A stretch of DNA of 64,000 bases from Symbiobacterium thermophilum IAM 14863 (GTDB lineage Bacteria; Bacillota; Sulfobacillia; Symbiobacteriales; Symbiobacteriaceae), in NCBI RefSeq assembly GCF_000009905.1, contig NC_006177.1:2984595-3048594 (forward strand), read 5' to 3'. Positions 15,274 to 61,942 of the stretch are shown here, in pieces. A model generated the notes under the pieces. It did not search any database. It was not told the DNA's origin and saw nothing but the letters and a program-made list of their open reading frames with translations. Position 1 is the first letter of the stretch. Each line of letters begins with the position of its first letter. Made by a program: the position numbers and the translations under genes.

Positions 15274-16596
<1,323 letters not shown>

Positions 16597-16654
16597 CTAA
16601 CACGGCCCTGCCGGCGGATCCAGCAACTGTACTACGATATGCATACAGTTGGGG

Positions 16655-16692
16655 ACAAAAAACCAGGGCCCCTCCCGCTCGGGGAAGGGCCC
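16655..16692 (-). terminator. Intrinsic terminator downstream of the yaaR-like gene
   Basis: Minus strand: GGGCCCTTCCCC-gagc-GGGAGGGGCCC hairpin followed by TGGTTTTTTG. Confidence 0.65.
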
Positions 16693-16698
16693 AGGGTC

Positions 16699-17148
16699 TC
16701 ACATCCGGACGTCCAGGAGCAGCCCGCGGATCTCGTCCACCGCGGCGAGGATCGCCAGCCGGTCCTGCTCCTGCTCCAGCACCATGCGGGCGAGCTCCTC
16801 CAGCCGCTGGTCCACCCGCTGGATGGTGACCATCGTCCGCTGCTCCCAGGCGTAGGAATCCCACTCCAGGTTCTGCCGGACTTCCATCATGTGGTGGGTC
16901 AGGTCGCGGAAGAGCCGGCCGATGGCCTCCCGGTAAAGTTGCAGGTCGTGCTGGCTGAGCGACTCCGTCAGCCGGCGCCCCAGCTCGTCGATCTCCTGCA
17001 GCGCGCGGTCAATCCGCTCGTTGAACTGCATGGCGTGCGACCGCGCCAGCTGTTCGCGAAACGGCACCCGGGTTGCGGGCGTGGCCCGCTCTCCGTGGCC
17101 TGTGGTCGCGATGCGGGTCAGGCCGGTGATCAGCCTTACCCGTTCCAT
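16699..17148 (-). CDS. YaaR/DUF327-family protein
   Basis: Resemblance to Bacillus YaaR over the C-terminal half; start at the second ATG, 6 nt after AAAGGGGG. Confidence 0.5.
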   Translation of the reverse strand: MERVRLITGLTRIATTGHGERATPATRVPFREQLARSHAMQFNERIDRALQEIDELGRRLTESLSQHDLQLYREAIGRLFRDLTHHMMEVRQNLEWDSYAWEQRTMVTIQRVDQRLEELARMVLEQEQDRLAILAAVDEIRGLLLDVRM

Positions 17149-17161
17149 CGGCATCCCCCTT

Positions 17162-17605
17162 TCACGCCTGCTCCCCGAGCGCGTCCACGGCTGCCAGAAT
17201 CGTCTCGGTGGCGGGCATCCCCGGCTGTACCCAGCGCACGATGCCGTTGCGGTCCACCAGGACCACCGTGCGGGCGATGAACCCCAGCGCGTTCAGCACG
17301 CCGTACGCTCGCGCCACGTGCTTCCCCTCGTCCGCGCAGATCGGGAAGCCGAAGCGGTTCTTCTCCGCCCACCGCTGGTGCGAGGCCAGGCTGCCGGGAT
17401 TGACGGCCACGACCTGCACATCCCGCGCGGCGTACGCCGCGGCCGCGTCACGCGCAGCCGCCAGCTGCCGGTTTCAGCCCGGGGTGTTGTCCTTCGGGTA
17501 AAAGATGATCAGCGCCCGCTTCCGCCCCCGCAGTGCGGAGAGCGTGAACGGCCCCTCCGTGGACTCGAGGGTGAAATCCGGAGCCACCTCGCCCGGTTGA
17601 ACCAT
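17162..17605 (-). CDS. bcp: Bcp-type peroxiredoxin with in-frame TGA (17474-17476) at the peroxidatic-Cys position: probable selenocysteine peroxiredoxin
   Basis: N-terminal piece MVQPGEVAPDFTL...ALIIFYPKDNTPG stops at TGA. Same frame continues NRQLAAARD...VQVVAVNPGSLASHQRWAEKNRFGFPICADEGKHVARAYGVL, colinear with Bcp FYPKDxTPGCTxEACxFRD...GVSxDSxESHxKFAEKxxLxFPLLSD. GGGAG SD before the ATG at 17605. Hairpins GCAGC-UGGCG-GCUGC and CGCGGC-GUAC-GCCGCG lie just 3' of the UGA. Confidence 0.6.
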
Positions 17606-17679
17606 CGGCGCCTTCACTCCCGTTTCCTTTTGATCGGCTATTCGCCGCAGCCCGCCAGATTCCTCCAGCCCCGCGGCGA

Positions 17680-18723
17680 TCAGTGCCACACCGGATGGCC
17701 GAGGAAGGCGGAAATGGGTTCCGCCAGGCGGTGCGCTTCCAGAAGCGCCGCCCGGTGACCGGCCAGCGACTCCAGGACCCACACCTCCGCACGGCCGCCG
17801 TAGGTCCGGACCAGATCCGCGAACTCCCGGCCGGCGGACGGCGGGAACAGGATGTCGCTGGAGACCGGGATCAGCAGGATCTCCGCGGCGATCTTCTGCG
17901 CCGCGACGTCCAGGTCCCGGTTTCCGTGGGCGATGTTGTGCAGGAGAGCCATGCGGGCGGCGGCCGCGAACCGGCCGGGGTCCAGGTGCGCCGCCAGTCG
18001 TTCCGCCTCCGCCTCTACCTCCGCCTGGAAGGCATACCGCCCCTCCGGCCCGGTCCAGGGGTGGGGCGAAGCCGGCGCCGTGCGCCGCCCCCACACGGCG
18101 TCGAGCCAGTCGTTGGACGACGAGAGCGTCAGGTACAGCCGCAGGGCGTACAGCAGCCCTTCGGCCGGGTCGGTCCGGATGGCGTCGATGGCGGCCTGGC
18201 AGACCGCCAGGGCGAAGAGCGGACTCGCCTGGTGGCCGCTGGCCACCGCGATGACCTGGTCCACCCGGTCCGGATAGGTGACGGCCCACTCCAGGGCCTG
18301 GAAACCCCCGGTCGAGGGGCCCGCGACGCAGGCCAGCCGCTCGATGCCCAGCGACTTCAGCAGTTGCCGCTGCAGCCGGACGTTGTCGCGCACCGTGATC
18401 TGCGGGATCGCCTCCCCCGTACCCCAGCCGCAGAAGGTGTCGGCCGCGATCACGAAGTAACGGTCGGTGTCAAATGCCCGGCCGGGCCCGATCAGCGGCT
18501 CCCACCAGCCCGGTCGGGGGTCAGCCGGGCCCGCGGCCGCGTGGCAGTCCGCCGCGAGCGGGTGACAGAGCAGCACCGCGTTGTCCCGCCGGGCGTTCAG
18601 CCGCCCGTAGGTCTCGTAACCCACGGTGGCCGAAATCGTCTCCCCCACCTCCAGCCGCAGCCGATCAGTAGAGAAGAGCTGTCTGGTGTTGGTCACGCGC
18701 GTTGTCGCCTCCTGAGCGCGCAT
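17680..18723 (-). CDS. metX: Homoserine O-acetyltransferase (alpha/beta hydrolase)
   Basis: GYETYGRLNARRDNAVLLCHPL...GPSTGGF matches the MetX N-terminus and nucleophile elbow. The track ORF is an upstream run-on; start set at MRAQEATT. Confidence 0.75.
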   Translation of the reverse strand: MRAQEATTRVTNTRQLFSTDRLRLEVGETISATVGYETYGRLNARRDNAVLLCHPLAADCHAAAGPADPRPGWWEPLIGPGRAFDTDRYFVIAADTFCGWGTGEAIPQITVRDNVRLQRQLLKSLGIERLACVAGPSTGGFQALEWAVTYPDRVDQVIAVASGHQASPLFALAVCQAAIDAIRTDPAEGLLYALRLYLTLSSSNDWLDAVWGRRTAPASPHPWTGPEGRYAFQAEVEAEAERLAAHLDPGRFAAAARMALLHNIAHGNRDLDVAAQKIAAEILLIPVSSDILFPPSAGREFADLVRTYGGRAEVWVLESLAGHRAALLEAHRLAEPISAFLGHPVWH

Positions 18724-18848
18724 GAAGGGCGCGTCGCGCTGCGCCCCGCTGCGCCGGTCTTCAGGACTTGGCGAACCAGACCGGCATCTCCTGTCTTCCT
18801 GCGGCGGGGAATGCTGGATTCCAGCCGTTTCGGCGGCCGCTGCCGGGG

Positions 18849-19556
18849 TTACCGCGCCGGTCCCCCCGCCCGCCGGGCCGCACGACCCGATGAGACCCTC
18901 GCCCGCTGCACCGACCCCTTCCCGGCCTGCCGGCCGAACCGGCAGTGGGGCAGGAGCGGGCACTGACTGCACTGCGGGTTCCGGGCGTGGCACACCTGGC
19001 GGCCGTGGTAGATCAGCCAGTGGTGCGCCTGCGACCAGTACTCCCGAGGGATCCGCTCCATCAGCTGCCGCTCGGTCTCCTCGGGCGTCTTCGCCTCCGC
19101 CAGCCCCAGCCGGTTGGCCACGCGGAACACGTGGGTATCCACCGCGATCGCCGGAATCCCGAAGGCGTTGGAGAGCACCACGTTGGCGGTCTTCCGGCCG
19201 ACGCCGGGCAACTGAATCAGCTCCTCCATCGTCGACGGCACCTCGCCGCCGTGCTTCTCCAGCAGCATCTGGCTGAGCCCCTGGATGTTCTTCGCCTTGC
19301 TCTTCCACAGCCCGCAGTCGCGGATCATCTCGCCGATCTCGTCCACCGACAGCGCCGCGAAGTGTTCGGGACGGTTGTAGCGGGGGAAGATGCGGGCGGT
19401 GACGATGTTGACCCGGGCGTCGGTGCACTGGGCCGAGAGGACGGTCGCCACCAGCAGTTCAAACGCATTCCGGTGGTTGAGCGCGCACTTGGCGTCCGGG
19501 TACATCTCCTCCAATTTCCTCAGAATCGCCTCGGTGTCCACGGACTTGCGTGCCAT
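18849..19556 (-). CDS. nth: Endonuclease III (DNA glycosylase/AP lyase, HhH-GPD with 4Fe-4S)
   Basis: LVATVLSAQCTD, HhH LPGVGRKTANVV, C-x6-C-x2-C-x5-C cluster loop; the long upstream track ORF is a run-on. Confidence 0.8.
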   Translation of the reverse strand: MARKSVDTEAILRKLEEMYPDAKCALNHRNAFELLVATVLSAQCTDARVNIVTARIFPRYNRPEHFAALSVDEIGEMIRDCGLWKSKAKNIQGLSQMLLEKHGGEVPSTMEELIQLPGVGRKTANVVLSNAFGIPAIAVDTHVFRVANRLGLAEAKTPEETERQLMERIPREYWSQAHHWLIYHGRQVCHARNPQCSQCPLLPHCRFGRQAGKGSVQRARVSSGRAARRAGGPAR

Positions 19557-61620: not shown

Positions 61621-61711
61621 TGGCGGAGAGAGAGGGATTCGAACCCTCGCGGGGCTTGCGCCCCCTACAGCTTTAGCAAAGCCGCCCCTTCAACCACTTG
61701 GGTATCTCTCC
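61621..61711 (-). tRNA. tRNA-Ser (anticodon GCT), class II, CCA encoded
   Basis: Manual fold: 7-bp acceptor stem, 3-bp D-stem, anticodon loop TTGCTAA, long variable arm, T-loop TTCGAAT, 3' CCA. Confidence 0.8.
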
Positions 61712-61851: not shown

Positions 61852-61942
61852 TGGCGGAGAGAGAGGGATTTGAACCCTCGCGGGGCTTGCGCCCCCTACA
61901 GCTTTAGCAAAGCCGCCCCTTCAGCCACTTGGGTATCTCTCC
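61852..61942 (-). tRNA. tRNA-Ser (anticodon GCT), second tandem copy
   Basis: Differs from copy 1 at two positions (T-loop TTCAAAT, one variable-arm base). Confidence 0.8.

Follow-up and report, generated by a model that had tools for sequence, protein, structure and literature searches.

A probable selenocysteine peroxiredoxin of Symbiobacterium thermophilum, annotated as two fragments, with an in-frame UGA and a covarying hairpin conserved among its orthologues

On the minus strand of a 64,000-nucleotide stretch of the Symbiobacterium thermophilum IAM 14863 genome (contig NC_006177.1, positions 2,984,595 to 3,048,594; the whole stretch is hereafter called the window, and positions are counted from its first letter), translation from 17605 to 17162 yields a single AhpC/TSA peroxiredoxin frame of 147 codons with one in-frame TGA, situated at the codon where the peroxidatic cysteine (CP) belongs. 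Judged from the sequence and its relatives, this locus is very probably one gene for a 147-residue peroxiredoxin with a single catalytic selenocysteine (Sec), i.e. a 1-Sec peroxiredoxin, in the BCP/PrxQ-AhpE region of the AhpC/TSA family. The evidence consists of a UGA that is conserved among orthologues, an intact reading frame, purifying selection on both sides of the UGA, a covarying hairpin just downstream, orthologues that carry cysteine at the same codon, and a SelB gene in the genome. A preliminary description of the window, made from its letters and a list of open reading frames (ORFs), had already named a probable selenocysteine peroxiredoxin here, and every in-silico criterion that could be tested, namely the UGA-Cys alignment, selection, the hairpin and SelB, supports that call.

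The translation reads MVQPGEVAPDFTLESTEGPFTLSALRGRKRALIIFYPKDNTPG-TGA-NRQLAAARDAAAAYAARDVQVVAVNPGSLASHQRWAEKNRFGFPICADEGKHVARAYGV...ALGEQA-TGA, with NRQLAAARD directly after the internal stop, and the gene start was placed at the ATG at 17605 on the basis of the orthologues. The internal TGA (17476..17474) falls exactly in the motif P37-K-D-N-T41-P-G-U44, of which P37, T41, P42 and G43 are invariant in our alignment A3, and the earlier placement of the UGA at the peroxidatic position of a P-x3-T-x2-U motif was therefore correct. When cysteine is written in place of codon 44, the protein matches Pfam PF00578 (AhpC-TSA) with 116.7 bits (cut-off 26) and an E-value of 7.9e-34, over residues 4-125 and profile positions 1-123 of 124. 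Together with this domain, the P-x3-T/S-x2-C(U) motif and the active-site arginine were found, which argues for membership in the peroxiredoxins (AhpC/TSA); a peroxidase activity is predicted. The arginine is Arg112, and its active-site role we take from general knowledge of peroxiredoxins. A scan of the whole window for in-frame TGAs with coding-like composition on both sides returned the codon-44 TGA as the sole match.

A protein search recovered two kinds of homologues, i.e. ten full-length ones (146-170 aa, 61-84% identical), all with cysteine at the codon-44 position, and a series of shorter ones of 81-104 aa that correspond to the C-terminal part only. DNA was obtained for seven of the latter, which together with the window gene make up eight TGA forms. 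These seven orthologues are 66-86% identical over 145 aligned columns, and in each of them the frame is interrupted by a single TGA, always at codon 44, and by neither a frameshift nor a further stop. All seven also share a neighborhood of endonuclease III (nth), a metX-like homoserine O-acetyltransferase-like hydrolase, the peroxiredoxin (prx) and DUF327, with an O-acetylhomoserine sulfhydrylase next in several of the loci. The closest full-length homologues, on the other side of the comparison that the preliminary description had proposed, carry Cys (TGC/TGT) in alignment with codon 44. A scan of metagenome contigs with the orthologue alignment gave distant peroxiredoxins only (at most 43%) and was set aside.

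As TGA is one base from TGC and TGT, a sequencing or assembly error hiding a true cysteine codon has to be considered; we regard it as next to impossible. The same locus with the same TGA is present in two independent read-set assemblies, SRR18352856 and SRR23005540, which must stem from independent samples since one of them differs by a nearby synonymous C/T; resequencing data accordingly show none of the TGC or TGT that had been named as grounds for abandoning the selenoprotein. Both fragments of the gene are, moreover, on the published complete genome, and seven other species or strains carry the TGA.

The same orthologues bear on the idea of a decaying pseudogene, according to which a nonsense mutation killed a former Cys-peroxiredoxin whose pieces are no longer expressed as protein. 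It would fit with the separate short fragments of the public annotation and with the cysteine of the closest full-length relatives. The TGA has, however, been kept in eight lineages, among which synonymous sites differ by approximately 50-57%, a divergence that also excludes contaminating copies of one sequence. The ratio of nonsynonymous to synonymous differences (pN/pS) among the eight forms is 0.29 over the 40 codons upstream of the TGA and 0.41 over the 92 codons downstream, and the additional frameshifts or stops of a decayed gene, which would have spoken against a selenoprotein, are absent from all seven orthologues. Synonymous sites that covary in a downstream hairpin and a rare codon that is fixed there (see below) are likewise unexpected of a dead gene. 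Since both halves of the gene are thus kept as protein-coding, as judged by pN/pS and the intact frames, neither a dead gene nor termination at codon 44 is compatible with the data; the pseudogene is effectively refuted, and we rate it as extremely improbable.

What the databases hold is a gene in two pieces, as the preliminary description had suspected when it spoke of mis-annotation. In the ORF table of the window the locus is covered by two separate minus-strand ORFs, 17474..18289 and 17162..17419, just as reported before, and most of the former merely overlaps the upstream metX gene in another frame. Exact-sequence look-up showed that GenBank and RefSeq split the gene into a 43-aa N-terminal and 82/85/100-aa C-terminal fragments. 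The N-terminal record is WP_148205598.1 (43 aa, 'redoxin domain-containing protein'), while BAD41769.1 (82 aa) and WP_083766130.1 (100 aa) are cluster-mates of the C-terminal fragment, which is 99% identical to the NCBI entry 'peroxiredoxin family protein [Symbiobacterium thermophilum]', the sole difference being a GTG start given as Met. Taken at face value, these records describe two products, a 43-residue peptide ending at the TGA and an independently initiated C-terminal protein of 82-100 residues, and in-frame GTG and ATG starts, which the gene callers picked, do exist downstream. This is most improbable in our view. The downstream start varies among the orthologues (hence fragments from 81 to 104 aa), neither piece has the catalytic residue or a complete thioredoxin fold, and the pieces always lie in one frame and jointly match the full-length homologues residue for residue.

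Downstream of the UGA, the eight TGA forms share a hairpin that resembles a selenocysteine insertion sequence (SECIS). It begins 14 nt after the UGA and consists of a 5' arm at 17459..17453 (nt 18-24, counted from the U of UGA), a CGUGA loop at 17452..17448 (nt 25-29) and a 3' arm at 17447..17441 (nt 30-36); G17451 and U17450 of the loop are thereby G26 and U27. The 7-bp stem is perfect in all eight forms, with standard pairs in 56 of 56 cells, and RNAalifold recovers the same helix. Two of its pairs covary, i.e. 18/36 (C-G in five forms, G-C in two, U-A in one) and 21/33 (U-A in four, C-G in three, U-G in one), and in both pairs the two partners are synonymous third codon positions. The covariation score was reached by none of 500 shuffles, and in slid registers pairing drops to 11-61%. 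Arg52 supplies the loop U with the last base of its codon, which is CGT in every TGA form, although CGT makes up only 4.5% of the arginine codons in the coding-like ORFs of the window; four Cys-form orthologues have CGG, CGC, CGT and CGC here, two of the four with an intact stem and two with a broken one. For comparison, the bacterial SECIS model (PMC13188914) calls for a loop of 3-9 nt, a stem of 4-16 bp, a G in the first two loop positions, a distance of 16-37 nt from UGA to loop and a minimum free energy (MFE) of at most -7.5 kcal/mol. The hairpin has a 5-nt loop whose second base is G and whose third is U, a 7-bp upper stem, a UGA-to-loop distance of 21 nt and an MFE of -12.2 to -21.0 kcal/mol (30-nt segments), and it falls within all constraints of this model. 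Synonymous-site covariation together with a fixed rare loop codon constitutes comparative support for a SECIS and adds modestly to the literature.

The preliminary description had counted two stable hairpins after the UGA. The first (17459..17441) is the conserved, covarying one, but the second (17441..17426, minus strand, CGCGGC-GUAC-GCCGCG, 6 bp) occurs in the window sequence only, being absent from all seven TGA orthologues, and was rejected; it directly abuts the SECIS stem and is probably a by-product of an alanine-rich, GC-rich coding sequence. A 3-bp lower stem proposed by RNAalifold (columns 12-14/41-43) was not adopted either, as it is broken in two of eight forms and shows no covariation.

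Several observations weigh against the selenoprotein, or at least temper the case for it. The shuffle control overstates significance because the eight TGA sequences are phylogenetically related. The conserved peptide A-A-R-D-A-A by itself fixes four of the seven stem pairs and most loop positions, and since two of the four Cys forms keep the stem as well, the hairpin alone is weaker evidence than it appears. A single-sequence fold of the 81 nt after the UGA is not exceptional (z = -0.12 versus shuffles); as the DNA is 68% GC, such folding is uninformative, and comparative analysis was therefore used. No Rfam family matches the hairpin element at gathering or permissive thresholds; neither a SECIS nor a tRNA-Sec family was hit, and the weak hits to M23 RNA and archaeal snoRNAs (E > 0.6) are chance matches. 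Within the 64-kb window, tRNA-Sec, selA and selD were not seen, and selB is likewise absent. On the other side, the main claim agrees with a published one and is not new, although for the S. thermophilum peroxiredoxin it has been made only as a computational prediction: Additional file 4 of the 2006 paper by Zhang, Romero, Xu and Gladyshev (Genome Biol 7:R94) already holds this sequence, U included, in an entry headed Symbiobacterium_thermophilum that runs from GEVAPDFTLE through PKDNTPGUNRQLAAARD to ALGEQA and equals residues 5-147 of the window protein.

Outside the window, the SelB sequence BAD40058.1 / WP_011195205.1 and both peroxiredoxin fragments were each found, by exact-sequence look-up, on a contig of 3,566,135 bp, and they presumably all lie on one S. 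thermophilum chromosome. Of the machinery that the preliminary description had proposed to look for in the genome, SelB was thus recovered directly, but SelA and SelD are taken from the literature, where SelA, SelB and SelD sequences are given for S. thermophilum (Zhang et al. 2006, Genome Biol 7:R94) and the organism is credited with 12 selenoproteins including 'peroxiredoxin' (Table 3 of the same paper). Neither tRNA-Sec nor selA adjoins selB in the selB loci of relatives. Apart from two tandem tRNA-Ser(GCT) genes on the minus strand (61621-61711 and 61852-61942), approximately 140 nt apart and found by both ARAGORN and Rfam, no RNA gene was detected in the window.

The machinery and the hairpin also bear on whether the UGA might be decoded as something other than Sec, e.g. 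by cysteine mis-charged on tRNASec or by near-cognate insertion of Trp or Cys, so that, at least at low selenium, a thiol enzyme or an inactive variant would result. Sequence data do not distinguish which residue is inserted, one database homologue (P0014) is recorded with Trp at the codon-44 position, and Cys and TGA forms interconvert often in the clade. We nevertheless hold such read-through to be very unlikely. The hairpin fits the model of a SelB-dependent SECIS, with a loop G-U that is under selection in the TGA forms only, the genome encodes SelB and, according to the literature, 11 other selenoproteins, and in an organism with the standard code TGA offers no gain over TGC unless Sec is inserted.

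If Sec insertion at codon 44 follows the paradigm established for E. coli and Moorella, the UGA would not be read as a stop during translation; the loop G-U of the mRNA hairpin would be bound by the C-terminal domain of SelB in the complex SelB-GTP-Sec-tRNASec, and SelB would bring the selenocysteine to the A site of the ribosome, where the UGA is decoded. By the general peroxiredoxin mechanism, Sec44 would then sit in the P-x3-T-x2-U pocket, activated by Thr41 and Arg112, and its selenolate would attack the peroxide, giving a selenenic acid that would be reduced back by a thiol. The position at +5 from U44, i.e. the site of the BCP-type resolving cysteine (CR), is Ala49, in agreement with the earlier remark that the resolving cysteine is replaced by alanine. 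That cysteine, which occurs in many but not all BCP/PrxQ members, is replaced by Ala or Ser in all eight TGA forms and is present in 5 of 12 close Cys forms. With alanine at +5, the window protein is therefore unable to form a BCP-type intramolecular CP-CR bond, and since a +5 cysteine is missing from all eight Sec forms, the enzyme is predicted to be of the 1-Sec type; the same absence hints that Sec removes the need for that cysteine. For want of a +5 resolving cysteine, the reductant would be a thiol or redoxin from outside the protein, with the clade-specific Cys90 as another possibility. This residue (FP[IL]C) is the sole cysteine of the protein and, according to the alignments, does not vary within the syntenic clade, in Sec and Cys forms alike; its position is occupied by Ala, Leu or Val in the outgroups (P0012, P0013 and P0015) and in AhpE. 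Speculatively, it may be a clade-specific resolving thiol.

A neighbor-joining (NJ) tree of the orthologues, built with the Sec/Cys column masked, mixes Sec with Cys forms in four or more clades, whose bootstrap support is 75-93%. One of the Cys forms, P0003 (TGC, with a decayed hairpin), originates from the metagenome-assembled genome (MAG) GCA_023623185.1 ('Bacillota bacterium Bin_10'), which also encodes a SelB that is 88% identical to that of S. thermophilum. As this MAG retains SelB, the switch between Sec and Cys occurs within Sec-competent lineages. Since most of the hairpin follows from the peptide and is still present in two Cys forms, both repeated reversion to Cys from a Sec ancestor and a repeated, easy gain of Sec from Cys are possible. 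A tentative proposal, to which we give somewhat less than an even chance, is that the Symbiobacteriaceae orthologues carry a 'latent' SECIS, mostly encoded by the peptide A-A-A-R-D-A-A, so that Sec and Cys could interconvert by one nucleotide plus synonymous tuning. If true, it would account for at least four well-supported exchanges between Sec and Cys at this syntenic locus, one Cys form coexisting with SelB among them. Sec could then be ancestral, with repeated Sec-to-Cys reversions, contrary to the published trend, in which only Cys-to-Sec events were inferred for Prx (Zhang et al. 2006, Genome Biol 7:R94, Table 1). One syntenic locus with alternating Sec and Cys forms could serve as a natural experiment on Sec/Cys exchange and also for the study of SECIS decay. 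The homologue P0014 (a JGI metagenome contig of 1034 bp), whose protein is 55% identical to that of the window, has tryptophan at the catalytic position (NTPGWNGQLC); behind this stands either a genuine TGG codon or a TGA that the gene caller translated by genetic code 4, and in the latter case it would represent a Sec form that carries the +5 cysteine.

Features of the peroxiredoxin locus in the window, and the loci of the MAG that combines a Cys form with SelB
Feature	Position	Strand	Basis or remark
Shine-Dalgarno-like purine-rich stretch GGGAGTGAAGG, 5' of ATG 17605	17611..17621	-	sequence reading only
Predicted complete peroxiredoxin coding sequence, read through the internal UGA	17162..17605	-	147 codons plus terminal TGA 17164..17162
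Thr41 codon of the P-x3-T-x2-U active-site motif	17483..17485	-	invariant in alignment A3
In-frame UGA, codon 44, proposed Sec at the CP position	17474..17476	-	reading and orthologues
SECIS-like hairpin	17441..17459	-	nt 18-36 from U of UGA; 8/8 TGA forms
Arg52 codon CGT, source of the loop G-U	17450..17452	-	rare codon, 8/8 TGA forms
Cys90 codon (FP[IL]C), sole Cys of the protein	17336..17338	-	alignments
Arg112 codon, conserved, presumed active-site arginine	17270..17272	-	invariant column, 28-sequence alignment
GCA_023623185.1 loci L003 (JAMNXV010000169.1) and L178 (JAMNXV010000211.1)			

In the window, the neighborhood covers 15274-19428 on the minus strand. The metX-like gene stops at 17680 and a DUF327/YaaR-like gene starts at 17148-17154, with prx tightly packed between them; a metY-like O-acetylhomoserine sulfhydrylase gene follows. 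The pairing of prx with DUF327 beside methionine-biosynthesis genes was seen in all fetched orthologous loci that were long enough to show it. The exact 429-aa product of the MetY ORF (15274-16563, minus strand) turned up only in two short contigs of Logan and in no NCBI record, although the neighboring peroxiredoxin fragments agree exactly with the complete S. thermophilum genome; either NCBI places the start codon elsewhere, or the strain behind the window is a slightly different one.

Beyond the published prediction, the additions made here are small, i.e. the support from covariation, the fact that the mis-annotation persists, and four or more exchanges between Sec and Cys in close relatives. 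Biologically, little is added, as Sec-peroxiredoxins are among the commonest families of bacterial selenoproteins and the sequence is already in the literature. What appears to be a real recoding event was nonetheless correctly called from raw sequence, and the main use of the locus is to correct the annotation and to illustrate a SECIS cleanly by comparison. The split annotation in GenBank and RefSeq persists twenty years after the published prediction and is worth correcting.

Among known systems, the gene is no different from members of the Sec-Prx family (COG1225/PF00578; Kryukov & Gladyshev; Genome Biol 6:R37; 7:R94), with which it shares the domain, the TxxU/PxxxTxxU motif and the location of the SECIS directly after the UGA. 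Prx (COG1225, TxxU) is among the most abundant bacterial selenoprotein families, and a 2026 review places it above the table heading 'Predicted with high confidence'. The hairpin itself is comparable to the SECIS elements of E. coli fdhF and fdnG and of Moorella thermoacetica fdhA, and to the bSECISearch consensus, in being a hairpin with a small G-U loop that lies in the coding region shortly after the UGA, and differs from them in having neither a conserved bulged U nor any similarity in primary sequence. Counted from the U of UGA, the loop G-U lies at nt 23-24 in E. coli fdhF and at nt 26-27 in the window hairpin.

The nearest protein systems each share part of this picture. PrxU of Eubacterium (Peptoclostridium) acidaminophilum, which has been studied experimentally (reportedly by Sohling et al. 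2001), likewise has an AhpC/TSA fold with Sec at the peroxidatic position, and its host is a Sec-decoding, Firmicute-like anaerobe. It belongs, however, to another, Prx1/AhpC-like subfamily and has approximately 230 residues against the 147 of the window protein, which scores 39.9 bits with NCBIfam NF040737 (peroxi_PrxU), below the cut-off of 270. AhpE of Mycobacterium tuberculosis (Rv2238c; PDB 1XXU/1XVW/4X0X), a 1-Cys peroxiredoxin, is the best match among solved structures (E 2.2e-18, residues 2-132) and agrees with the window protein in size, in its single catalytic residue, in the lack of a +5 resolving cysteine and in an LRD / FPLLSD-type framework; its catalyst is cysteine, it reads 'PLAFTGIC' where the window protein has 'PKDNTPGU', it is without Cys90, and identity is only about 35%. 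Symbiobacterium would not be expected to have the mycoredoxin/mycothiol system that serves as reductant for AhpE. With E. coli Bcp and the PrxQ of plants and bacteria (thioredoxin-dependent thiol peroxidase, NF006960), finally, the protein shares the 'FYPKDNTPG[C/U]' signature, and Cys orthologues of the clade carry the BCP-type CP-x4-CR pair. The earlier identification as Bcp holds in so far as this is the top NCBIfam match (E 4.5e-18), but the score of 65.7 bits is below the cut-off of 140 for the Bcp equivalog, and the best solved relative is AhpE. On these sequence grounds the predicted protein is filed under the AhpC/TSA peroxiredoxins and the Prx selenoprotein family, and not as a Bcp or PrxU equivalog.

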